43,655 nt of DNA from Parcubacteria group bacterium GW2011_GWB1_45_10 (lineage in GTDB: Bacteria; Patescibacteriota; Minisyncoccia; UBA6257; Brennerbacteraceae), in assembly GCA_001001185.1 (NCBI GenBank), contig LCKC01000001.1, forward strand, positions 1 through 43,655, in the 5' to 3' direction. The translations under genes and the position numbers were made by a program. Each line of letters opens with the position of its first letter. Position 1 is the stretch's first letter. Positions 2,413 through 40,086 of the stretch are shown here, piece after piece. The notes under the pieces are model-generated. The model worked only from the letters and a program-made list of their open reading frames with translations. It was not told where the DNA came from and did not search any database.

Positions 2413-3120
2413 TTAAGAAAAACGCAAGTGTTTATCCCACTTTTTGTAAAGCTCCGAGGTCGCAAAAACGTCGCCCATGCAGTATTTGGCTATTTCCAGG
2501 AACTTTCCTTCGTCAAAAAGCCGGCCGACGTCGTCTCCGGAAACGCCGCCCTGCTTTGGCGACTCAATCCCGAAAGCCTTGGTCCAGAAATGCAAACCGA
2601 GATAATCGTTTTTGGCGCCGTAAAATCCGAGCTCATCAGCCAGGTCAACATGCTTGGCGAACATCGGCTGGAGACTGAGATAACGATTGTGCATCAGGTT
2701 CTTGCCCGGCTTAATCTGGTTGACCGCCGATCTGACCATCAACATCGGCATGTCAAAGCTTTTGCCGTTGAAAGTAATAAACTCCTCATAGCCCATGGCC
2801 AACTGCCAGAACTTTTCCAAAAGTTCTTTTTCTGTCTGAAACGCCAGATACTCAATGTTGTTTTCTTCAAATTTTGCGATTGGCGTCCGCGACTGAAAAA
2901 TCGCCACGCCTTTGTTTGTTTCAGGATTCAGCATGCCGATGGCGACAATTTCCGACAGCGGCGGGAAAAAAGTCAGCTTGTCTTTAAGATCCTGAAGTTC
3001 GTCTTCGTCTTTCGCCCGCTTCTTGAATCTGGTTTCCAAAATTTCCTTGGAAAGCTCGTCAAGTCCGTCAAATTTTTTGCCGATTGTTTCAATGTCCAAA
3101 ACCAATTTATTTGCCGTCAT
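2413..3120 (-). CDS. RNase H-fold 3'-5' exonuclease (PolB-exonuclease-like)
   Basis: 235 aa with an N-terminal LVLDIETIG (DxE ExoI motif) and a C-terminal YCMGDV (ExoIII-like). It overlaps the upstream gene by a 4-nt ATGA. Confidence 0.6.
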   Translation of the reverse strand: MTANKLVLDIETIGKKFDGLDELSKEILETRFKKRAKDEDELQDLKDKLTFFPPLSEIVAIGMLNPETNKGVAIFQSRTPIAKFEENNIEYLAFQTEKELLEKFWQLAMGYEEFITFNGKSFDMPMLMVRSAVNQIKPGKNLMHNRYLSLQPMFAKHVDLADELGFYGAKNDYLGLHFWTKAFGIESPKQGGVSGDDVGRLFDEGKFLEIAKYCMGDVFATSELYKKWDKHLRFS

Positions 3121-4706: not shown

Positions 4707-5885
4707 TTAGGGCGCTTCCGGAAAACCGAAATCAGATTCAATCTCCAGTAAGCGGTTGTATTTTGCCAATCTCTCGCCCTGGTAAAAAGCGCCGAACTTC
4801 ACAAAATCCGCGTTCACGCCGACTGCCAGGTCAGCCAGATAGTCGTCATTTGTTTCTTGCGACCGGTGGGAAACCACAATTTTCAAACCATTGGCTCTCG
4901 CCAGCTGCACGGTTTCCAAAGTTTCCGTCAGAGTGCCGACCTGGTCGGGCTTGATAATAATGCCGTTAATCATTTTCTGACCGAGAACTTCTTTCAGTTT
5001 TTTCGGATTGGTCACCGTCAGGTCGTCGCCGACAATCAAAGACTGGTTGCCAATCTCCGATAATAATTTCTGCCAATATTCATTAAAGCCTTCTTCGGGA
5101 AAAGGATCCTCAAAATACGAAAACGGATAATTTTTCTGGAACTCCAGATATTCTTTCATGTATTTTTCCGGCTCAAAACCGGAAATATTGTTTGCCGCGG
5201 CATCAATGCCCAGCCGGTCGCCCAAAGAGATTTTTTGAGCGAGCAGGTCCAGAACTTCTTTTTCAGACCGAAAATCAATGTCAAAGCCGCCTTCGTCTCC
5301 GTAGTTAACTTCTTTTTTTTCCGATTCAAAAAACTTCGCCAAACCGTCAAAAAACCGGTCAAGGCTTTCAATCTGGTCTTTGACTGATTTTTCTTTGGCA
5401 AGCAAAAGATGTTCCTGAACCGGCAAATGATTTTTTGCGTGAACGCCGCCTTCAATAATGTTAAACAAAATCTTCGGCGACTGATAAGAAAAACCGCCCC
5501 CGGCGGAAAAAAGTTCCGCCAGATGCTCAAAAAGCTGTTTTTTTCCTGATTGGGCCGCCAATTTCGCGCAGGCAAAGCTGACGCCGAGCATGACATTTCC
5601 GCCAAGTTTTTCTTTCTGAAAACTCGGGTCAAGCTCAATCATTTTCTTGTCAATCCCAGCCTGGTCAAAAACATCCATGCCGGACAAAATCGCGGTCAGC
5701 TCCCCTGACTTCAAAACTGCCTGGTCTGGCTCAAGATATTTGGCTTCGTATTTCCCTTCTGATTTGCCAAACGCGACAAACGCGTCGCTTGACGCGCCAG
5801 TGTCGTCAAAAACCGCCACCCTGATAGTTTCCGAACTGCGAAACCCCAAGGCTTTTTGAATCTGAATTTTTTGTATTTTCGCCAT
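4707..5885 (-). CDS. eno: Enolase (phosphopyruvate hydratase), short divergent form
   Basis: The motifs GDEGGF, VGDDLTVTN, IKPDQVGTLTET, SHRSQETNDDYLADLAV and ERLAKYNRLLEIE align with canonical enolase signatures. It is 392 aa versus about 430 typical. Confidence 0.85.
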   Translation of the reverse strand: MAKIQKIQIQKALGFRSSETIRVAVFDDTGASSDAFVAFGKSEGKYEAKYLEPDQAVLKSGELTAILSGMDVFDQAGIDKKMIELDPSFQKEKLGGNVMLGVSFACAKLAAQSGKKQLFEHLAELFSAGGGFSYQSPKILFNIIEGGVHAKNHLPVQEHLLLAKEKSVKDQIESLDRFFDGLAKFFESEKKEVNYGDEGGFDIDFRSEKEVLDLLAQKISLGDRLGIDAAANNISGFEPEKYMKEYLEFQKNYPFSYFEDPFPEEGFNEYWQKLLSEIGNQSLIVGDDLTVTNPKKLKEVLGQKMINGIIIKPDQVGTLTETLETVQLARANGLKIVVSHRSQETNDDYLADLAVGVNADFVKFGAFYQGERLAKYNRLLEIESDFGFPEAP

Positions 5886-6087: not shown

Positions 6088-7536
6088 CTATTCTTTTGGC
6101 CTCATTAACGGAAAAATCTGGCACTCTCTCATGGTTTTGTTCTCCAGAAAAGCAAACAGCCTTTCGCTCATGCCAAAACCGCAGGTCGGCGGCATGCCAT
6201 ACTCCAAAGCCTCAACAAAATCTTTGTCATCCATCTGCGCTTCTTCGTCGCCGGACTCTCTCAGTTTTTGCTGTTCAGTGAACCGGCCAGCCTGGTCAAT
6301 CGGATCATTAAGCTCGCTGTAGCCGTTGCCAAGCTCTGACCCGGCAATAATCACCTGGAACCTTTCCGTCAGTTCAAGATCATCAGGCTTTCTTTTCGCC
6401 AAAGGCGAGATTGACACCGGCACGTGGACTAAAAACCCCGGGCCTTTTATCTGTTTGCGGCAATATTTCCAAAGATTATCAATCCCCCGTGTCAGGCTGA
6501 AACCCTGCTTTGAATAATCAACTTTAAGCTCTTTGAGTTTTTTCTCAATTTCTTTGAGACTGGTTTTGGTCACGTCAACGCCAGTCATTTTTTTGACGGT
6601 TTCAACGTAATCGTAAACTTCCCACGGCTTTCCCAGATCAATCTCATATTTTCCGATTTTGAATTTTTGCGTGCCAAAAGTTTTTTGGGCAACGCTCTTT
6701 ATCATTTCTTCAACCAGGGCCATACCGTCCAAATAGCTCGCGTAAGCCCAATAAAACTCCATCTGCGAATAATCCTGAAGATGCTCCGCGTCCATGCCTT
6801 CATTTCTGAACTGCCGGCCGATCTCAAAAGTTTTTTCAAAACCGGCAACCATCAGTCTTTTCTGCCAAAGCTCGCCCATTGAGATTCTCAAGTAAACGTC
6901 AATATCAAGCGCGTAATGATGAGTTTGAAAAGGCCTGGCGTCGGCGCCGCCCGTCGTCGTTTCCAAAACCGGCGTTTCCACTTCAACAAATCCTTTTCCA
7001 ACCAAAAAATCCCTGGTCGCCTGCCAAAACCTGGCTTTACGCAAAAAAAGGTCTCTCAACTCCGGGTTGAGCAAAAAATCAACATATCTTTTTCTTAAAC
7101 GCTCTTCTTCATCTTTCAAGCCAAACCACTCGCTCGGCAAAGGCCGCAAAGACTTTGTCAAAAGCTGCATCTTTGAAACTTCAACCGAAATCTCGCCCGC
7201 CTGAGTTTTGAAAACTTTGCCTTGAGCCGCCAAAAAATCTCCGCTGTCAAAAAACTCAAGCAGCTCAAAATCTTTTTCCAGATTTTTTTTGGAAAAAAAC
7301 AGCTGGATCTTGCCGGACTCGTCTTTAATGTCCAAAAAAGCCATTGCCCCGTGTTTCCGGATTGACCAAAGCCGTCCGCAAACCAAAACCTGCTTACCCA
7401 AAGAATCACGGGCGGTTTCTATTTTCCCGACTTTGCCTTTAAGCTCGATTCTTGGCGGAAACGGATTAATGCCTCTTTTTTTCAGCTCCTCAAGCTTTTC
7501 TTTTCGCGCTTTGATTAACTCCTCGAGACTAGCCAT
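6088..7536 (-). CDS. lysS: Lysyl-tRNA synthetase, class II
   Basis: 482 aa with an N-terminal OB anticodon-binding domain and class II motifs (FRNEGMD..., ELGNGYSELNDP, GMPPTCGFGMSERL). Confidence 0.95.
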   Translation of the reverse strand: MASLEELIKARKEKLEELKKRGINPFPPRIELKGKVGKIETARDSLGKQVLVCGRLWSIRKHGAMAFLDIKDESGKIQLFFSKKNLEKDFELLEFFDSGDFLAAQGKVFKTQAGEISVEVSKMQLLTKSLRPLPSEWFGLKDEEERLRKRYVDFLLNPELRDLFLRKARFWQATRDFLVGKGFVEVETPVLETTTGGADARPFQTHHYALDIDVYLRISMGELWQKRLMVAGFEKTFEIGRQFRNEGMDAEHLQDYSQMEFYWAYASYLDGMALVEEMIKSVAQKTFGTQKFKIGKYEIDLGKPWEVYDYVETVKKMTGVDVTKTSLKEIEKKLKELKVDYSKQGFSLTRGIDNLWKYCRKQIKGPGFLVHVPVSISPLAKRKPDDLELTERFQVIIAGSELGNGYSELNDPIDQAGRFTEQQKLRESGDEEAQMDDKDFVEALEYGMPPTCGFGMSERLFAFLENKTMRECQIFPLMRPKE

Positions 7537-7675
7537 CCCTGTAGTAGAATTTTGACCAATCGCTTATTTAGGCGATTAACCTTTATTTAAGTTAATTATA
7601 CTATCTCTACAAATTACCCTGCAGATCTGAATCTCGACGCGATAATGAAAAAACTGTCAAAATTACACTACAGGG
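7537..7675. repeat. 139-bp inverted-repeat cassette, copy A (abuts lysS ATG)
   Basis: The arms are ccctgtagtagaattttgac (7537-7556) and gtcaaaattacactacaggg (7656-7675), 20 bp with a central 2-nt mismatch. It is about 90 percent identical to copy B by eye. Confidence 0.75.
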
Positions 7676-7677
7676 TT

Positions 7678-8151
7678 CTAAGATATTTTTATGATTTTAT
7701 AATCTATTTTCTTACCCAAAAGATTGGTAACAAAAACCTGGTCGCCGGCTTTTTTGCCCAAAAGCGTCTGTCCAAGCGGAGATTCGTTGGAAATAAACCC
7801 TTTGCCCGGATCTGACTCTTCAGAACCGACAATCGTGAACTCCATTTTTTTGACACCCTGTTTCACCTCAACGGTCGAGCCGATGGCCACGGTCGTTGAG
7901 TTTTGCCTTTTTTTAATCACCGCCGCCCTTTTAATCAAGTCTTCAAGCTCCAAAATCCTGCCTTCGTTCATGGCTTGAGCTTCTCTGGCTGACTCGTAAG
8001 CCGGGCTGTCAGTGATATCGCCGGCCTCAACCGCCTCCTTGATTCTGTCGGCGATTTTCTTCCTTTCAATGTTTTTCAAAGCGTCAAGCTTGACTCTCAA
8101 ATTCTCCAAGCCCTCCTGAGAAACGTAATAAGGTTTGTTTTCCGTATCCAT
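7678..8151 (-). CDS. greA: Transcription elongation factor GreA
   Basis: MDTENKPYYVSQEGLENLRVKLDAL... has the coiled-coil N-domain with acidic tip residues and a C-terminal globular domain. I use the ATG at 8149-8151 (157 aa). The tracked TTG at 8175 would read through the repeat arm. Confidence 0.9.
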   Translation of the reverse strand: MDTENKPYYVSQEGLENLRVKLDALKNIERKKIADRIKEAVEAGDITDSPAYESAREAQAMNEGRILELEDLIKRAAVIKKRQNSTTVAIGSTVEVKQGVKKMEFTIVGSEESDPGKGFISNESPLGQTLLGKKAGDQVFVTNLLGKKIDYKIIKIS

Positions 8152-8152
8152 G

Positions 8153-8291
8153 CCCTGTAGTAGAATTTTGACCAATCGCTTATTTCGGCGATTAATCTTA
8201 ATTTAAGTTAATTATACTATGTCTACAAATCATCCTGTACCGCATGAATCTCGACGCGATAATGAAAAAACTGTCAAAATTACACTACAGG
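8153..8291. repeat. 139-bp inverted-repeat cassette, copy B (1 nt from greA ATG)
   Basis: It has the same arms and interior as copy A, in direct orientation 616 bp away. Differences cluster in the central ~25 nt. Confidence 0.75.
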
Positions 8292-8464
8292 ATTTCGCTA
8301 TATTCAGCTAATAACTTTGTATTTTAAACCGATAACCGCAAATTAGCAACCCCGATTCTCATTTCAAATTTGAGCAATTCTCTTTTTTCTAGTTTTCGGA
8401 GCCTCCAAGTCCACATCTCTCACCCCAGACGAACAAAATCGTCCCGTTCTGAACATTATTGGAG

Positions 8465-8603: not shown

Positions 8604-10460
8604 TTATTCGCTTATCCTATTCTCCCAGTACCAGTACAAAATCTGTTTTGCCAAAGGCACGGCCGTGGCGCCGCCGGAACCGCCGGACTCAACCAAAACC
8701 AAAAGCAAAAACTTCGGATCTTCTGCCGGAATAAAAGAGACAAAAGCCGCATTTGTATCTGTCAGACTTGAGCTTGTCTGGATGCTGCCGGTTTTGCCGG
8801 CAACGGAAAACGGCAGGCCGGCCATTCTGCCGGCGGCCGAACCGTCAATGACTGTTCTTTCCATGCCGCGGTTGACAATCTTAAAATAATTTTCATCAAT
8901 CTGATACTCCCTTAAAACCTTTGGGCTGCCATGGTAAACCTCTTGTCCGCCTTCCGAGTTAAAAACAGAGTTAATCAGGAACGGCCGGAAAACTTTTCCC
9001 AGATTGGCGAAAAGCTGATAATTTGCCGCCAACTGGATCGGCGTGGTTTTAACGTAACCCTGGCCGATCGAATAATGATAAGTGTCGCCGATGCGCCAGA
9101 TGTCTTTGAAAGTTTTTTCTTTCCATTCAGGATCCGGCAAAAAACCAGGTTTTTCCCCCAAGAAGTCAGTTTCGGTTTTCTTGCCCCAGCCGTATTTTTC
9201 AAGATATTCTTTGATTCTTTCAACCCCCAAACCCTTGATATTGCCGTAGCCCCCGCCAATGGTGTAAAAATAAACGTTGGCAGAGTCAGCAATCGCTTCT
9301 TCCATATTAACGAACCCGTGAGCTTTCCAGTCCCTGAAAATATACGGCTGATCCGGAAAATAAGGATTTTCAATCGTAATCTTTCCTTCAGTGTCGTCAA
9401 CTTTAAACAACGGATCAATGATTTTTTCTTCCAAAGCCGCCAGCGCGATAAACGGTTTAATGGTTGAACCCGGGCTGTATTCGCCGCTGACTGCCCGGTT
9501 AAAAAACGGCTGGGCCTTGGAATCAGACCAGATTTTTTTTGAAGTATCAAAACCGGGATAGCTCACCAAAGCCAGGATCTCGCCGGTTTTCGGCTCAAGC
9601 GCGACCGCCACCGCGCCGGAGCCGGCGTCAAAAACATTGTCCCGGAAAATCTGATAGATTTTTTCCTGCAGCTTGGCGTCAAGCGTCAGCCTGATTGAGT
9701 TGCCGGTTTTAAAATAATTGCTTTTTTCCTGACCAATCAAGTCGTCCTTAACGTCAACCTGATAACTAAAACTTCCCCGGCTGCCGCGAAGGTAACTGTC
9801 ATAAAACAGCTCCACGCCGACCTTGCCGATTGTCTGGCTTAAAGACAAGTCCTGATTTTCTGCATGCTCTTTTTCCGTAACCAAGCCTGTATAGCCAAGA
9901 ACATGGCTCGTGGCTTCTTTCAAAGGATAATGCCTCTGGTAGCGGCCGACGAGCTTGAAACCAGGCATCAAAGCCTCATTGGCTTTAAACTCAATCGCCT
10001 TATCCAAGTCAAAGTTTTCAAAAACAACTTCTTTGTTTGAATCAAGTTTTTGGCTGATCTCGTCTTTGGCAATGCCCGAAATTCTTGACAAAGTTTCCAG
10101 CTGCAGCTCAAAATTATGGCCGGAATCCAGATTTTCTTTGATCGGCAAAACCTCAAAATAAACTTGGTTATCCGCCAGAACATCGCCATACCGGTCAAAA
10201 ATCAACCCCCGCGGCGCTTCAAGAAAAATATTCCGCAAAGAATTTTCTTCTGACCGCCGTGCATAAGCCGGATGCTGAAAAATCTGAAGCTTAAAAGCAA
10301 CCCCCAGGCTCAAGAACATGAAAAAAGCCACCAAGCCCAGGATGAAAAAAACATACTTTCTGCCGATGGAAAACTCCAGGCGCTTGGCGAAAACCGCGTT
10401 GTTTTCCAAAAGTATTTCTTCCGGCTCAATGATAAAACTGTTGTTTCTTTTGAGTTTCAT
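8604..10460 (-). CDS. mrdA: Penicillin-binding protein 2 (elongasome transpeptidase)
   Basis: 618 aa with an N-terminal TM anchor and the transpeptidase motifs STIKP (SxxK) and KTGS (KTG). It is positioned after mreBCD. Confidence 0.85.
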   Translation of the reverse strand: MKLKRNNSFIIEPEEILLENNAVFAKRLEFSIGRKYVFFILGLVAFFMFLSLGVAFKLQIFQHPAYARRSEENSLRNIFLEAPRGLIFDRYGDVLADNQVYFEVLPIKENLDSGHNFELQLETLSRISGIAKDEISQKLDSNKEVVFENFDLDKAIEFKANEALMPGFKLVGRYQRHYPLKEATSHVLGYTGLVTEKEHAENQDLSLSQTIGKVGVELFYDSYLRGSRGSFSYQVDVKDDLIGQEKSNYFKTGNSIRLTLDAKLQEKIYQIFRDNVFDAGSGAVAVALEPKTGEILALVSYPGFDTSKKIWSDSKAQPFFNRAVSGEYSPGSTIKPFIALAALEEKIIDPLFKVDDTEGKITIENPYFPDQPYIFRDWKAHGFVNMEEAIADSANVYFYTIGGGYGNIKGLGVERIKEYLEKYGWGKKTETDFLGEKPGFLPDPEWKEKTFKDIWRIGDTYHYSIGQGYVKTTPIQLAANYQLFANLGKVFRPFLINSVFNSEGGQEVYHGSPKVLREYQIDENYFKIVNRGMERTVIDGSAAGRMAGLPFSVAGKTGSIQTSSSLTDTNAAFVSFIPAEDPKFLLLVLVESGGSGGATAVPLAKQILYWYWENRISE

Positions 10461-10741
10461 CCCGTTAGAGACAGGAAACGCTTTAATCTGTTTTTCAAGT
10501 AGCGTTTGCCCATGCCTGATTTTAAATACTTTTCTCCCGACCTGGCGTCAGCAGTATTCATAGAGGCTTCATAGTAAATCAGGTCAAAAGGTCCACGGTT
10601 CTTCTTCCAACCAACAATTTCCTTATTATGCTCAGTAAAGCGTTTCCGTAAATCATCGGTAAAACCCGTATACCACAGGCTGTTTTTTCTACTCCTGAGT
10701 ACATAGATATAGTAGTATTGTTTGTCTATAACGGGATTCAT
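10457..10741 (-). CDS. GIY-YIG nuclease family protein (94 aa)
   Basis: YYIYVLRS...LWYTGFTDDLRKRFTEHN... is a GIY-YIG/URI core. Its start overlaps the mreD stop as ATGA, and its stop overlaps the mrdA start as ATGA. Confidence 0.85.
   Translation of the reverse strand: MNPVIDKQYYYIYVLRSRKNSLWYTGFTDDLRKRFTEHNKEIVGWKKNRGPFDLIYYEASMNTADARSGEKYLKSGMGKRYLKNRLKRFLSLTG
10460..10736 (-). mobile_element. GIY-YIG gene cassette bounded by 13-bp terminal inverted repeats and a TGAA direct duplication
   Basis: On the plus strand, tcccgttagagac (10460-10472) faces gtctataacggga (10724-10736), matching 12 of 13 positions as an inverted repeat. A ttca flank lies on each side (10456-10459 and 10737-10740). 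Confidence 0.65.
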
Positions 10742-13422: not shown

Positions 13423-15927
13423 CTACTTTCCGTCTTTTCCGAACGCAATCATTGTTTTGATGACTGAATCAGGGTTTAAACTGATGGCCTGGATGCCGAT
13501 TTTTTTCAAAAACATGGCAAACTCCGGATAGTCGCTCGGCGCCTGGCCGCAAATGCCGACGTATTTTTTCTTTTGATTGCATTTTTCAACAATGGTTTTT
13601 ATCAGCTCTTTGACTGACGGATTGTTTTCATTAGCAATGTGGGCAATGATACCCGAGTCGCGGTCAAGCCCCAACGTCAGCTGGGTCAGGTCGTTTGAGC
13701 CGATTGACATACCGTCAAACAGCTTCAAAAACTCGTCAATCAAAATCACGTTTGAAGGAATCTCGGCCATCATGTAGATTTTCAGATTTTTGCCTTTTTT
13801 CAGCCCGGCTTTGGCCATCACTGCCAGAACGCTTTTGGCTTCTTCAACTGTCCGGCAAAACGGCACCATTGGCACCACGTTTGTTAAACCCATATTTTCT
13901 CTGACTTTTTTGATTGCCTGGCACTCCAAGCCGAAAGCTTCGCTGAACTTCGGATCGTAATAACGCGAGGCGCCGCGCCAGCCAATCATCGGGTTTTCTT
14001 CATCCGGCTCGTAAAACGGGCCGCCGAGCAAAGTGCCGTACTCATTGGTCTTGAAATCTGAAAACCTGATAATCACGTCAAAAGGTGAAAAAGTCGCGGC
14101 AATCATGGCAATGCCTTCGGCCAGCTTGTCAACGTAATACTGCTTTTTGTTTTTGTAGCCCCGGGTCAGCTTTTCAACCTTTATCAAAGCGCTCTGAACT
14201 TCCCGGCGGCTGTGCTGATAAAAAGATTTCTGGTTTTTTCTTAATTTTTCATAATCAATCAAAATGTTCGGATGAACTCTTATTTTTGAAGCGATAATAA
14301 ACTCCAGCCGGCCGAGCCCGACGCCCTGGACCGGCAAAGAATGGTACCGGAAAGCTTCGTCAGGTGAACCGATGTTCAAAGAAATCTTGGTTTTCAGCTT
14401 GGGCAGGCTTTTCAAGCTGTGCTTCATCAGCTTGAACTTTAAGACTCCGGGATAAATCCGGCCAGCTTCGTCTGACGAACAGTCAACCGTGATTAACTGT
14501 CCGGTTCTCAAAACCCTGGTGGCGTCCTGACTGCCGACAATGCACTGGACGCCAAGCTCCCGTGAAACAATCGCCGCGTGCGAAGTCCGGCCGCCTTTGT
14601 CAGTGATAATCGCTGAAGCGATCTTCATAATCGGCTCCCAGTCCGGGTCAGTGATTTCGGTCACCAAAATCTCGCCTTTTTTAAAGGTGTTGATGTGTTT
14701 GGCGTCTTTAATCACCCTGACTTTGCCGGAAACAATCTTTGTCCCGATTGGAATGCCGGAAACCAGCGGCCTCGACGGCTTGGAAACAACGCTGTACTCT
14801 TCATAAACAGTTTCTTTTTTCCCGGCATGAATTGTTTCCGGCCGCGCCTGGACAATGAAAAGCTCTTTGGTCAAGCCGTCTTTCGCCCACTCAATGTCCA
14901 TCGGCGTGTATTTTTTGTGCTTTTTTGAAAAATGCTCTTCAACCTTGACGCAGTCTTTCGCCAAAGAAATCACTTCTTTGTCTGTCAGGGAATAAGCCTG
15001 CCTTTCTTTTTCCGGAACCGAAACAATCTTCACCGGCCGCCTGCCGGGTTTTAGTTGCGCCGGCCCAGTCGAAGCAGCTTGCGCTGATTTATCCTGAGAT
15101 TTGCCGAAGGAGCCTGCCGAAGCGTAAATCATTTTCAGATTTTTGCCGGAAAGCTTTTTGCTGATAATCGGATAAAAACCTTTTGCCAAAGACGGTTTGA
15201 AAAGAATAAATTCGTCCGGGTCAACTTTGCCCTGGACAATCATCTCGCCCAAACCGTAAATGCTGTCAATAATCACGGCGTTCTTAAACCCGGTTTCCGT
15301 GTCAATCGTGAAAGCGACTCCGGAAACCGCTTTGTCGGCCCGAACCATTTTCTGGACGCCGACAGACAAAGCGACGCTCATCTGGTCAAACCCCTTGTCA
15401 ACGCGATAGCTGATTGCCCGGTTGGTGAACAAACTGGCATAACATTTTCGCGTCGCTTCAAGAAGATCTTTTTCTCCGCGAATGTTCAGATAAGTTTCCT
15501 GCTGACCGGCAAAGCTGGCGCCGGGCAAATCTTCGGCGGTTGCCGACGACCTGACGGCGACGTCAACATTTTCCGTTTTGTACTGCCTTGAAAGCTCGTG
15601 ATAAGACTTTATAATCTGCTTTTCCAGATCTTTGGGAAACGCGCCGGACAAAATAAGATTTCTGACAATCTTGCCCCTTCTCGCCAAATCCATGACATTA
15701 TGCGTGTCCAAACCTTTCAAAGCTTGCCTGATTTTCTCTCCAAGGCTGTTAAACTTGACGAAATATCTGAATGTTTCGGCGGATACGGCAAAACCATTCG
15801 GAATCTTCACGCCCAAAGGCACAAGTTCGCGATACATCTCGCCCAAAGCCGCGTTTTTGCCGCCAACCAGCCCGACGTCTTTAATTGAAAGATTTTTGAA
15901 CCAAAAAATATGCCTCGCTTTCTTCAT
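13423..15927 (-). CDS. ppsA: Phosphoenolpyruvate synthase (pyruvate, water dikinase)
   Basis: 834 aa with an N-terminal PEP/pyruvate-binding domain (VGGKNAALGEM), the swivel phospho-His motif GGRTSHAAIVSRELG and a C-terminal PEP-utilizer barrel (GSNDLTQLTLG). Confidence 0.9.
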   Translation of the reverse strand: MKKARHIFWFKNLSIKDVGLVGGKNAALGEMYRELVPLGVKIPNGFAVSAETFRYFVKFNSLGEKIRQALKGLDTHNVMDLARRGKIVRNLILSGAFPKDLEKQIIKSYHELSRQYKTENVDVAVRSSATAEDLPGASFAGQQETYLNIRGEKDLLEATRKCYASLFTNRAISYRVDKGFDQMSVALSVGVQKMVRADKAVSGVAFTIDTETGFKNAVIIDSIYGLGEMIVQGKVDPDEFILFKPSLAKGFYPIISKKLSGKNLKMIYASAGSFGKSQDKSAQAASTGPAQLKPGRRPVKIVSVPEKERQAYSLTDKEVISLAKDCVKVEEHFSKKHKKYTPMDIEWAKDGLTKELFIVQARPETIHAGKKETVYEEYSVVSKPSRPLVSGIPIGTKIVSGKVRVIKDAKHINTFKKGEILVTEITDPDWEPIMKIASAIITDKGGRTSHAAIVSRELGVQCIVGSQDATRVLRTGQLITVDCSSDEAGRIYPGVLKFKLMKHSLKSLPKLKTKISLNIGSPDEAFRYHSLPVQGVGLGRLEFIIASKIRVHPNILIDYEKLRKNQKSFYQHSRREVQSALIKVEKLTRGYKNKKQYYVDKLAEGIAMIAATFSPFDVIIRFSDFKTNEYGTLLGGPFYEPDEENPMIGWRGASRYYDPKFSEAFGLECQAIKKVRENMGLTNVVPMVPFCRTVEEAKSVLAVMAKAGLKKGKNLKIYMMAEIPSNVILIDEFLKLFDGMSIGSNDLTQLTLGLDRDSGIIAHIANENNPSVKELIKTIVEKCNQKKKYVGICGQAPSDYPEFAMFLKKIGIQAISLNPDSVIKTMIAFGKDGK

Positions 15928-16071
15928 CCCGTTAGAAGCAAGAAACCTGCTTCAAAATATTTATGAGAGGTTTCTTAGCTGATTAATTTATCAATGTTTT
16001 TTATTACGAATCCCGATGGTTTCTGCCGACGGAGCCGCGTTTGACACGGCGGAGCAGGGCTTCTAACGGGA
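15927..16071 (-). mobile_element. ORF-less miniature derivative of the GIY-YIG cassette at the ppsA start codon
   Basis: Its termini tcccgttagaagc / gcttctaacggga form a perfect 13-bp inverted repeat, with ttca flanks at 15923-15926 and 16072-16075. It keeps the codons for MNPV... at one end and ...FLLLTG-stop at the other. Confidence 0.6.
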
Positions 16072-16106
16072 TTCATAAAAAATAAACGGTTAATTCGCTT
16101 ATCTTT

Positions 16107-16135
16107 ATTATACCGAGCCAAAACAAAAAGTCTAA
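16107..16135 (-). promoter_or_regulatory. ppsA promoter (TTAGAC-17-TATAAT), upstream of the miniature element
   Basis: On the plus strand, attata is at 16107-16112 and gtctaa at 16130-16135. Confidence 0.5.
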
Positions 16136-16159
16136 CCTCCGGAAAACGATTTTGCCGAT

Positions 16160-38888: not shown

Positions 38889-39947
38889 TCAAGATTCCAG
38901 CTTTTCTTTGGTTTTAAAATCTTTGTTCACTTTTTTCCAAAACTGCTTTTTCTCCCTTTGGTAATCAAGGCTTTTCTTTTGTTCAACGAATCTAGCTTCG
39001 CTCTTGAGTTTGAGCCAGCTTTTGTACCGCTCAAAAGAAAGCTCTTTGTTTTCCACGGCTTTAAGAATGGCGCAGCCTTTTGAGCTTTGATGGTCGCAGT
39101 CGGAAAACTGGCAGTTTGAGCTCATTTTCTCAATCTCTTCAAAAAAATCGCTGACGCTGTCTAAAGACGCCAAAATCTGAAGCTCGCGCATGCCCGGGGT
39201 GTCAATCACCAAAAAACCTTCCGGCAGAACGAAAAGTTCGCGTTTAGTGGTCGTGTGCCTGCCTTTTGAGTCTTTCCCCCTGACTTCCTTCGTCGGCAAA
39301 ACTGTTTCTTTCAAAAAACGGTTGATGATGCTTGACTTACCGACTCCCGAAGAGCCGATGAAAACCGCGGTCTCGCCCGGCTTCATCAAACCCGCCAGCT
39401 CTTTTAAACCAGCTCCGGTTTTGGCGCTGGTCAGAACAACTTTTTCTTTTGCCAGCCTGGTTTTTATTTTCCGCAAAACAGAGTCCCCGGCGTTCAGGTC
39501 AAGTTTGTTAAAAACAACCACCGGCTCAACGCCGCCGTCCCTGACCGCCACCAAATACCTTTCCAACCGGTTCAGATTAAAGTTGTTGTCCAGGCCCTGG
39601 ACCAAAAACGCTTTGTCAATGTTTGCCGCAATCACCTGCTCTTCAATCGCCTGGCCGGGCTTCGGGTCTTTCCTTGAAATCTTTGAAAACCGCGGCAAAA
39701 CTTTTTCCAGCAAAACTTTTTTTTCGCCTTTAAGTTTTTTGAACAAAACCCAGTCGCCGGTTTTCGGCATGGCGCTTTTTCTGGAAAAGCTTTTCAAAAT
39801 AATGCCTTCAACTTCGCCGAAAGCCGTGTAAAGAATCCAGTTTTTGCGGTTCTCAACAGCCACCCGGCCAATCAGTTCTTCTTTGACGCCAAGCTCTCCG
39901 CCAATTTTATTTTTATAGTTTTCAAAACCCCAATGAGACAAGTTCAT
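38889..39947 (-). CDS. rsgA: Ribosome small-subunit-dependent GTPase A
   Basis: A circularly permuted GTPase (NKLDL...GSSGVGKSSIINRFL...DTPGMRE) with a C-terminal zinc knuckle (CQFSDCDHQSSKGC). Confidence 0.9.
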   Translation of the reverse strand: MNLSHWGFENYKNKIGGELGVKEELIGRVAVENRKNWILYTAFGEVEGIILKSFSRKSAMPKTGDWVLFKKLKGEKKVLLEKVLPRFSKISRKDPKPGQAIEEQVIAANIDKAFLVQGLDNNFNLNRLERYLVAVRDGGVEPVVVFNKLDLNAGDSVLRKIKTRLAKEKVVLTSAKTGAGLKELAGLMKPGETAVFIGSSGVGKSSIINRFLKETVLPTKEVRGKDSKGRHTTTKRELFVLPEGFLVIDTPGMRELQILASLDSVSDFFEEIEKMSSNCQFSDCDHQSSKGCAILKAVENKELSFERYKSWLKLKSEARFVEQKKSLDYQREKKQFWKKVNKDFKTKEKLES

Positions 39948-40072
39948 CCCGTTAGAAGCAGATCGCGATCTTAAAAAGACGAAATCTGCAAATTAATGTT
40001 ATATTTTCCTGTTTAATCTAATTACATTCTTTTTCCCATTATTTCCCGCGGCGATCGCGGCTTCTAACGGGA
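39947..40072 (-). mobile_element. ORF-less miniature derivative of the GIY-YIG cassette at the rsgA start codon
   Basis: It has the same 13-bp termini as the 15927 copy, with ttca flanks at 39943-39946 and 40073-40076. It retains MNPVRS... and ...LLLTG-stop remnants. Confidence 0.6.
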
Positions 40073-40086
40073 TTCATTTTCAGGAA

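Follow-up and report, generated by a model that had tools for sequence, protein, structure and literature searches.

In Parcubacteria group bacterium GW2011_GWB1_45_10, a segment with complementary ends stands directly on the start codon of ppsA, the gene for phosphoenolpyruvate synthase, and a second ATG lies at the far end of this segment. The arrangement provokes a question: is the segment a leader that belongs to ppsA, or is it a piece of mobile DNA that settled on the gene's start codon? We analyzed a 43,655-nt stretch of contig LCKC01000001.1 (assembly GCA_001001185.1, positions 1–43,655; “the window” hereafter) and compared it with loci from other genomes, which are designated L plus a number. 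In our judgment, the segment is probably a non-autonomous, internally deleted member (a “mini”) of a family of hairpin-ended cassettes that inserts at ATGAA in the Patescibacteria (Candidate Phyla Radiation, CPR).

Sequence and predicted fold of the element

Counted with both of its ATGAA copies, the element spans positions 15923–16076 of the minus strand (154 nt; 153 nt from ATG to TGA), the strand on which all family members in the window lie. Read toward ppsA, it is tttttATGAA-TCCCGTTAGAAGC…GCTTCTAACGGGA-TGAA-gaaagcg. The host gene (13423–15927, minus strand) encodes 834 amino acids with PPDK_N, PEP-utilizers, and PEP-utilizers_C domains. The 5′ ATGAA (16072–16076) is the original ppsA start site, and its ATG (16074–16076) is now a decoy start codon; the 3′ ATGAA (15923–15927) comprises the rebuilt ppsA start codon (15925–15927) plus AA. 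The left terminal arm, A-TCCCGTTAGAAGC (16059–16072; 16059–16071 without the adjoining A), codes for (M)NPVRS and supplies the 5′ strand of a 14-bp terminal stem. The right arm, GCTTCTAACGGGA-T (15926–15939; the 13-nt arm proper is 15927–15939), supplies the 3′ strand, and its last bases are the A and T of the ppsA ATG.

An initial annotation, made from the sequence alone, had reported a perfect 13-bp inverted repeat, and the arms are indeed fully complementary over 13 nt, or 14 bp with the adjoining A and T. The predicted RNA fold closes this 14-bp stem (minimum free energy, -54.7 kcal/mol; z = -5.1), and folding with DNA parameters yields the same architecture (z = -3.9). Abutting the right arm is a sub-terminal hairpin (15940–15976), AAGAAACCT / 19-nt loop / AGGTTTCTT, whose nine base pairs end at the arm boundary and whose 3′ strand conforms to the pattern TTYCYT. 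Its loop is 19 nt long versus the usual 3–5 nt in the family, and its 5′ part is also longer than usual.

From the decoy ATG, a remnant open reading frame (ORF) of 33 codons plus TAA occupies 15975–16076 (translation: MNPVRSPAPPCQTRLRRQKPSGFVIKNIDKLIS*); its similarity to GIY-YIG nucleases is limited to the arm. The initial annotation counted its codons correctly but placed its end 47 nt before the right arm: the true distance is 35 nt, and 47 nt is the distance to the ppsA ATG. The 3′ end of the element, read in the same frame, encodes …GFLLLTG*. The fossil coding ends that had been proposed, MNPV… and …FLLLTG overlapping the ppsA ATG, can thus both be read in the element. The element region is identical across seven independent assemblies (listed as Parcubacteria bacterium GW2011_GWC1_45_9). 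Rfam models matched nothing over the window at gathering thresholds and nothing on 15850–16150 at E-values up to 10, and a tRNA search of the window found none.

Absence of the element from syntenic ppsA loci

Is the element a feature of ppsA leaders in general? The nearest ppsA relatives share 69–81% protein identity with the window's gene and retain the gene order DUF4147/MOFRL, ppsA, mreB, mreC, mreD, PBP2. The arms are absent from the ppsA leaders of all five of these syntenic relatives (L008, L010, L011, L152, and L153). The gap that precedes ppsA measures 49 nt in both L008 and L152, 39 nt in L010, and 161 nt in L153, and the genes overlap in L011; in the window, it is 232 nt. The relatives' ppsA start sites are ATGAA (L010, L011) or ATGGA (L008, L152), and subtracting the element and one TGAA from the window leaves …ttttttATGAAgaaagcg, which codes for MKKAR. 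The GIY-YIG gene that lies between mreD and PBP2 in the window is likewise absent in L008, L010, and L011, and the L008 PBP2 gene starts with ATGAA.

The ppsA element was inserted after divergence from the nearest sequenced relatives. Because the five syntenic leaders are short and bear no trace of it, the element is an inserted sequence, not a conserved riboregulator; a leader shared among relatives, which the initial annotation had named as the observation that would count against mobility, is not what these orthologs possess. The presence/absence polymorphism comes with a short direct repeat, as judged from the empty ATGAA sites in the relatives and from a nested insertion (L142 versus L135) described below. 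This ATGAA repeat could be a true target duplication or, equally well, one copy of the target plus an end of the element.

Related elements in the window

The 18-mer ATGAATCCCGTTAGAAGC, with up to three mismatches allowed, matches the window five times, versus 0.01 matches expected. The five matches are both ends of each of two minis and the left end of the GIY-YIG gene, and all three of these elements sit on gene starts. They occupy three of the ~9 start-type ATGAA sites in the window; the 80 internal sites and the ~13 other intergenic ones are all unoccupied.

The second mini (39943–40077, minus strand; 135 nt) lies on the start codon of rsgA and has the same AGAAGC/GCTTCT arms as the ppsA mini. 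It is of the class whose pairing is extended by CGCGATCGC / GATCGCGATCT; in this second architecture, CGCGATCGC adjoins the left arm and pairs with GATCGCG, which adjoins the right arm. This architecture recurs in other genomes: the ends of the rsgA mini match those of L023, L119, and L052, and a multi-copy subfamily in the metagenome assembly SDBT01 is of the same extension-pairing class.

The third element is a full-length member (10456–10741, minus strand). Its 94-aa GIY-YIG ORF, located between mreD and the PBP2 gene, spans the element from the left-arm ATG to a TGA that overlaps the PBP2 ATG. As the initial annotation stated, its TGAA flanks match those of the ppsA element; both elements lie between copies of ATGAA. 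The further statement that the arms share their first 10 nt holds for the right arm (TCTAACGGGA) but not for the left, where 8 nt are common (TCCCGTTA|G in the mini versus TCCCGTTA|T in the full-length copy). The left end of the full-length copy (10724–10741) encodes MNPVID versus the consensus MNPVRD; the underlying change from AGA to ATA places a T·C mismatch in the terminal stem, given which this copy may be impaired for mobility. When the three elements are aligned, the ends are common, but the interiors of the ppsA and rsgA minis are unrelated. Neither mini retains nuclease coding beyond the arm codons.

A family of minis in the Patescibacteria

To describe the wider family, we scanned one reference genome per species with the pattern ATGAATCCCGTTAGA-N100-130-TCTAACGGGATGA. 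At least 120 genome loci were returned, nearly all labelled Patescibacteria (Parcubacteria lineages, Saccharibacteria, and Kazan among them). The family counts given here rest on the 129 minis in the 120 loci listed (L012–L131), and the true total is at least as large. Further copies, without which the initial annotation would have abandoned mobility, are therefore plentiful: there are at least 129 minis in other genomes, in addition to the rsgA copy. Viral contigs scanned with the two-ended pattern contained no copies.

The ppsA mini has the ends that are common to the 129 minis elsewhere (5′ end ATGAATCCCGTTA-A, 3′ end TCTAACGGGATGAA). Its arms are perfectly complementary, including the three variable positions; this arm type, AGAAGC/GCTTCT, occurs in nine of the 129 family copies listed. 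Its 3′ ATG starts a host gene in the same orientation. In size, it differs from the majority. Within the scan's bounds of 128–158 nt, lengths of 128 nt (n = 45), 129 nt (n = 23), 130 nt (n = 11), and 131 nt (n = 15) dominate, and the ppsA mini, at 153 nt, falls in the upper tail of a distribution that reaches 156 nt. Few shorter minis were seen, even with a wider size range, which was searched within the fetched loci only. Minis outnumber full-length copies by about 40 to 1 in the fetched loci.

The target is well defined. In 98% of copies, …GGGATGA is followed by an A, with no other conservation in the flanks; the repeated unit is thus ATGAA, and insertion at it occurs in one orientation only. 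In 117 of the 129 minis (91%), the 3′ ATG opens an ORF that has at least 60 codons or runs off the locus. Under a stricter test, 102 (79%) are start-like, compared with 11.6% of the 2639 other ATGAA sites in the same loci, and three of the 129 look mid-gene, compared with 13.6% of those other sites.

Tandem arrangements also occur. In L014 (6020–6160), and in the flanks of L067 and L077, minis form arrays in which each junction has one ATGAA in common, and a third arm type (ATCCCGTAGTAG…CACTACGGGAT) is found in the flanks of these arrays (L014, L067, L077). L074 and L138 contain tandem or composite copies as well.

Conserved helices and derivation from the nuclease gene

Which features of the minis have been conserved? 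At the variable positions of the terminal stem (arm positions 16–18), the pairs switch GC/AU, AU/GC, and UA/CG, respectively, and 97–98% of copies are paired. A sub-terminal hairpin of the form GGAAnnn-loop-nnnTTCC ends one base short of the right arm, and each of its seven base pairs has changed on both sides. The covariation score is 0.274, compared with 0.137 in shuffled alignments (none of 500 reached 0.274) and no more than 0.129 in slid controls. At the variable positions, the two helices are thus kept by pairing and not by sequence. Mismatches in the hairpin comprise ten G·T and four A·C and are about equal in the arms, a signal too weak to tell a function in RNA from one in DNA.

The full-length copy in the window contains a 12-bp internal long-range inverted repeat: GGAAACGCTTTA (nt 95–106, codons LRKRFT) pairs with TAAAGCGTTTCC (nt 257–268, codons LKRFL) across a 150-nt loop. 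The corresponding repeat measures 15 bp in L108 and 14 bp in L074, with compensatory differences, and the predicted fold of the window's full-length copy has the same two stacked helices. The hairpin at 15940–15976 in the ppsA mini is the counterpart of both the family hairpin and this long-range repeat. Because both hairpin strands match the long-range repeat, a mini is the gene minus the ~150-nt loop that encodes the nuclease core, with both arms and the sub-terminal hairpin kept. The 128–131-nt size class follows as well: a length of ~129 nt results if a few bases take the place of the loop and the stem loses 4–5 pairs. Similarity to the first 12–38 nuclease residues is retained in 20 of the 129 minis, which indicates that minis derive from the gene and not the reverse.

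Spread as minis versus decay in place

Do minis move as minis? In other genomes, they do. Several same-genome subfamilies have decayed but common interiors at different loci: L025/L036/L050 (Jorgensenbacteria), the two copies in L057, L079/L080, L014/L067, and L022/L053. When a metagenome collection was scanned for the 21 nt that open the ppsA mini, seven copies of ~149 nt were recovered on contigs of assembly SDBT01; they are closely similar by inspection, and each precedes a different sequence. (The window locus itself was not returned, and a scan of the collection for an empty ppsA site in the same species gave no hits; the latter result carries no weight, as the collection apparently does not include this organism.) Minis thus amplify within genomes as minis. 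A further case is found at L142 (5133–5420), where an element is nested at an internal ATGAA of a 149-nt mini. The nested element has different arms (TCCCGAACGAAA/TTTCGTACGGGA ) and yet the same ATGAATCCCG…CGGGATGAA outer ends, and a paralog (L135, 486–650) shows the empty site. Because this insertion lies at an internal ATGAA, targeting does not require a start-codon context.

The excess of copies at gene starts calls for additional targeting or for survivorship. In the latter case, internal insertions would be lost, whereas copies at starts would persist because only a precise deletion keeps the gene intact. Direct repeats of 5 nt that bracket a hairpin would also favor precise loss by replication slippage, as is established for palindromes flanked in this way. 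For the ppsA element, precise excision would join …TTTATTTTTTATGAA directly to GAAAGCGAGG, and a circle or hairpin junction would read …CTAACGGGATGAATCCCGTTAG….

For the ppsA copy itself, an alternative is that a full-length cassette at the ppsA start lost its nuclease loop by deletion across the internal inverted repeat and never moved as a mini. A mini is what remains after the loop of a 12–15-bp repeat is removed, so such a deletion could recur. In addition, the ppsA copy is atypical in its length and in its 19-nt loop, and no sibling of its interior was found; only its first 21–23 nt recur (L052, L036). Still, past the arm its interior has no residual resemblance to any GIY-YIG protein, its opening 23 nt (AGAAGCCCTGC) belong to a mini lineage seen elsewhere (L052 and the SDBT01 copies), and minis in other genomes amplify in the miniature form. 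On balance, we consider decay in place unlikely, albeit a contender to be taken seriously.

The nuclease and its role

The window's nuclease matches the Pfam GIY-YIG family over residues 9–76 (E = 1.9e-14). Its closest solved relatives by sequence are the UPF0213 proteins BH0048 (PDB 1ZG2; E = 4.7e-6) and EF2693 (PDB 1YWL; 3.6e-3), followed by Slx1 (0.18). We found 3065 homologs. The 120 that were listed are mostly exactly 94 aa long, with 65–80% identity; 60 of these 120 begin with MNPVRD, and 84 end with FLSLTG. Because these termini recur among the homologs listed, the inverted-repeat ends of the element are the first and last codons of the nuclease. We are fairly confident that the full-length form of the family is a cassette of ~285 bp with a single ORF for a 94-aa GIY-YIG protein that resembles UPF0213 and Slx1. 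An example from the Kazan lineage (L063, ~7423–7710) has a full-length, 285-nt ORF (MSPVRSQ…) that ends at a TAA inside the right arm, and its AGAAGC/GCTTCT arms are like those of the window's two minis.

In L082 (~5574–5860), a GIY-YIG ORF lies between copies of an inverted repeat other than the family's (CTCACTTGGAAAGGATCC / GGATCCTTTCCAAGTGAG) and is also bounded by a 12-nt direct repeat (GGGGCGGTTAGC). Because of it, small GIY-YIG genes with inverted-repeat ends may form several families.

Might the nuclease be a mere passenger, riding inside elements that are spread by another enzyme or by replication slippage and recombination alone? GIY-YIG enzymes are not known to serve as DNA transposases, the literature search found no such case, and the preponderance of minis over full-length copies also speaks for a passenger. 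Against this, the arms and one strand of the hairpin are the coding ends of the nuclease gene, and these coding ends are nearly invariant across the 120 listed homologs. The decayed nuclease N-termini in minis also mark the minis as descendants of the gene, and the window holds no candidate enzyme gene linked to the elements other than the nuclease. We therefore find the passenger role doubtful.

Possible consequences for ppsA expression

Does the element affect the gene on which it sits? A promoter-like sequence, TAGACT-16 nt-TATAAT (16107–16134, minus strand), stands upstream of it. The distance from this site to the original ppsA start is 30 nt, compared with 27 nt for the TATAAT of L008, and the spacing in L152 is comparable. 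Because the promoter-like site lies upstream at the relatives' distance, the whole element is most likely within the ppsA 5′ leader and transcribed from the ppsA promoter. The initial annotation had claimed as much; its promoter-like site is present, and transcription of the entire element is consistent with that site.

In the predicted folds, the probability that the ppsA AUG is unpaired is 0.19–0.25 with the element in place versus 0.55 in the reconstructed empty leader; with the 5′ arm held open, as a ribosome on the decoy ORF would do, it is 0.41–0.48. It is thus plausible, from this modeling, that the transcribed stem partly masks the ppsA AUG. Ribosomes that start at the decoy AUG, to which the original leader now belongs, would melt the 5′ arm and free the real ppsA AUG; ppsA expression would in this way remain coupled to its original initiation signal.

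The family provides a hint of such translation. The decoy frame is free of stops to the right arm in 47 of the 129 minis, compared with none in either of the other frames and ~13 expected from shuffled sequences. Lengths of the form 3n + 2 predominate, and in these the decoy ORF terminates 4 nt short of the host ATG, at the TAA that the right arm contains. The decoy peptides are not conserved among the 129 minis. The open frame suggests selection for translation through the element, although some of this signal may instead be left over from the ancestral ORF.

A displaced Shine-Dalgarno (SD) sequence upstream of the decoy ATG was considered and dropped: of 128 family copies, only 12 have such a 4-mer, and this scarcity suggests that genes carrying these elements mostly initiate translation independently of SD sequences. 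By eye, no SD-like sequence was apparent in the ppsA leaders of the window (16077–16106) or of L008, L010, and L011 (~2960–3000).

Such effects invite the proposal that the hairpin and upstream ORF, whatever their origin, are now maintained by selection as a translational regulator of ppsA. The perfect arms and flanks, the identity of the sequence in seven assemblies, and the strong predicted structure that lowers AUG accessibility all accord with it. Those seven assemblies, however, share an identical ppsA protein and leader; they are effectively one strain and uninformative on selection. Moreover, the element is absent from every relative examined, and the same kind of element precedes unrelated genes. 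Domestication of this kind strikes us as improbable. A conserved ppsA riboregulator or another known structured RNA unconnected with mobile DNA, for which only the highly structured 5′ leader speaks, is refuted by the five empty orthologous leaders, by the lack of an Rfam match even at permissive E-values, and by the identical ends that bound a nuclease gene and at least 129 minis at other genes.

Nature of the element and proposed mobility

We return to the reading of the ppsA element as a deleted, non-autonomous member of the cassette family. At a gene start, an incoming element would take over the host start site, and its right end would rebuild the host ATG. Minis would be mobilized in trans by the family nuclease, which would recognize the folded two-helix ends in single-stranded or cruciform DNA. 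Recognition is probably of the folded structure, because pairing, not sequence, is kept at the variable positions.

Several points weigh against this proposal. One is mechanistic: GIY-YIG nucleases hydrolyze DNA, and they are not known to perform strand transfer or to serve as DNA transposases, which makes insertions at many loci a puzzle. The ppsA copy, at 153 nt and with its 19-nt loop, lies outside the 128–131-nt mode and lacks a sibling interior, and it may have decayed in place given this atypical size and loop length. The sole full-length copy in the window has the mismatched MNPVID arm. Finally, the decoy ORF of the ppsA copy ends 47 nt short of the ppsA ATG; termination-reinitiation, for which many family members are arranged, is therefore inapplicable at this gene, and only the unmasking version could apply.

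The autonomous/non-autonomous relationship, likened by the initial annotation to that of a MITE (a miniature transposable element with inverted repeats), is supported: the ends are the same, the relatives' leaders are empty, and at least 129 minis exist, some with GIY-YIG N-terminal coding. What had escaped notice were the conserved sub-terminal hairpin, the 128–131-nt size class, and the fact that the window's minis share only their ends.

The family might even represent an undescribed class of mobile element: a ~285-bp, one-ORF cassette whose ends are its own codons, whose Slx1-like nuclease would cut a folded intermediate, and which would target ATGAA starts and mobilize ~128-nt minis in trans across the CPR. 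We advance this broader claim tentatively, with somewhat less than even confidence. We regard the family as a MITE-like system with an unprecedented partner and target, and there is a substantial chance that its underlying mechanism is new. In our literature search, we came across neither a GIY-YIG gene whose coding ends are inverted repeats, nor miniatures of such a gene, nor CPR elements that target start codons.

If true, these conclusions would add a GIY-YIG-associated, hairpin-ended element to prokaryotic mobile DNA, and they would pose the puzzle of how a 94-aa, purely hydrolytic nuclease relates to site-specific insertions at many loci. In the streamlined CPR genomes, a structured leader of ~130 nt and a decoy start codon would be present at many genes, with effects on the calling of start codons, on how many small “hypothetical” ORFs are counted, and on how translation initiation is modeled. 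The small GIY-YIG proteins of the UPF0213/YhbQ type would gain a testable role, and the sharply defined ends would make the elements an easy marker for strains and insertion polymorphism in metagenomes.

A second, unrelated repeat in the window

The window also contains two copies of a ~141-nt repeat (7537–7677 and 8153–8294; 93–98% identity) that is unrelated to the ATGAA family. Its inverted ends are ~20 nt long (CCCTGTAGTGTAATTTTGAC and GTCAAAATTCTACTACAGGG), it contains promoter-like boxes (TTGACA and TAGTATAAT), and its copies end right at a gene ATG, one that of lysS and the other that of greA. In L002 (GCA_003521685.1), which is from the same organism, the greA segment between the copies is absent, and this absence suggests recombination between them.

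Comparison with known systems

How does the family compare with elements already described? The motif pair GTTAGAG/CTCTAAC could be taken for an integron attC-like site; this reading was rejected, as the half-site order is reversed relative to attC and there is no linked integrase. Rickettsia palindromic elements are likewise small palindromes tolerated against coding sequence in reduced genomes, but they lie in-frame inside genes, are translated, and have no known coding partner, whereas only three of our 129 minis look mid-gene.

Homing genes of the GIY-YIG type (T4 seg and I-TevI relatives) resemble the full-length cassette in being selfish genes that lie between host genes and use host expression signals. 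Homing, in contrast, involves one cognate site and repair copying with long flanking homology. The present family occurs at many unrelated gene starts and has inverted-repeat ends and nuclease-less derivatives, and its nuclease has no separate DNA-binding domain. Assignment as a homing endonuclease gene was accordingly rejected, given the many unrelated sites, the unconserved flanks, and a match to the group I intron endonuclease model of 19.6 bits, below the cut-off of 56.

Among solved structures, the family nuclease comes closest in sequence to proteins of the UPF0213 group (1ZG2 and 1YWL; E. coli YhbQ type), with Slx1 next. Slx1 cuts branched DNA, an activity that fits recognition of a folded end. 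These proteins are treated as housekeeping or repair factors; inverted-repeat ends, miniatures, or start-codon insertion are not known for them, and the literature search turned up none.

The ppsA element shares the defining features of a MITE in part. It is small and has no intact mobility ORF, only the 33-codon remnant without GIY-YIG similarity, and its terminal repeats are common to a protein-coding partner, as the full-length L063 copy with AGAAGC/GCTTCT arms illustrates. Interiors common to multiple copies are seen for the subfamilies of other genomes, but the ppsA copy has no such sibling. Among MITEs, the Correia/NEMIS elements of Neisseria are especially similar: they are ~100–155 bp long and non-coding, with terminal inverted repeats, a short target sequence at both ends, and many copies, and they are often co-transcribed with a neighboring gene as a stable hairpin that alters expression. 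The differences are considerable. The present family is partnered with a GIY-YIG nuclease of 94 aa rather than a DDE transposase; it inserts at ATGAA in a single orientation and not at TA; its copies lie exactly on start codons, which they rebuild; there is a second, covarying sub-terminal hairpin; and there is no sequence similarity.

In architecture, the closest counterparts are the REP/REPIN-RAYT systems and the miniatures of IS200/IS605, in which one small nuclease gene is located between hairpin ends and hairpin-only derivatives abound. These systems, too, have a short, asymmetric target and a fixed orientation, and it is pairing rather than sequence that is conserved. They differ in their enzymes, which are of the HUH/Y1 type and cut and rejoin single strands via a covalent intermediate, whereas the partner here is a GIY-YIG/UPF0213 protein, with a hydrolytic fold not known to rejoin DNA. 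Membership in these groups was rejected on this ground: the partner matches the Pfam GIY-YIG family (1.9e-14) and is not an HUH (Y1) enzyme. An IS200-type insertion sequence is ~700 bp long; if autonomous, the ~285-bp cassette would thus be well under half of that size.

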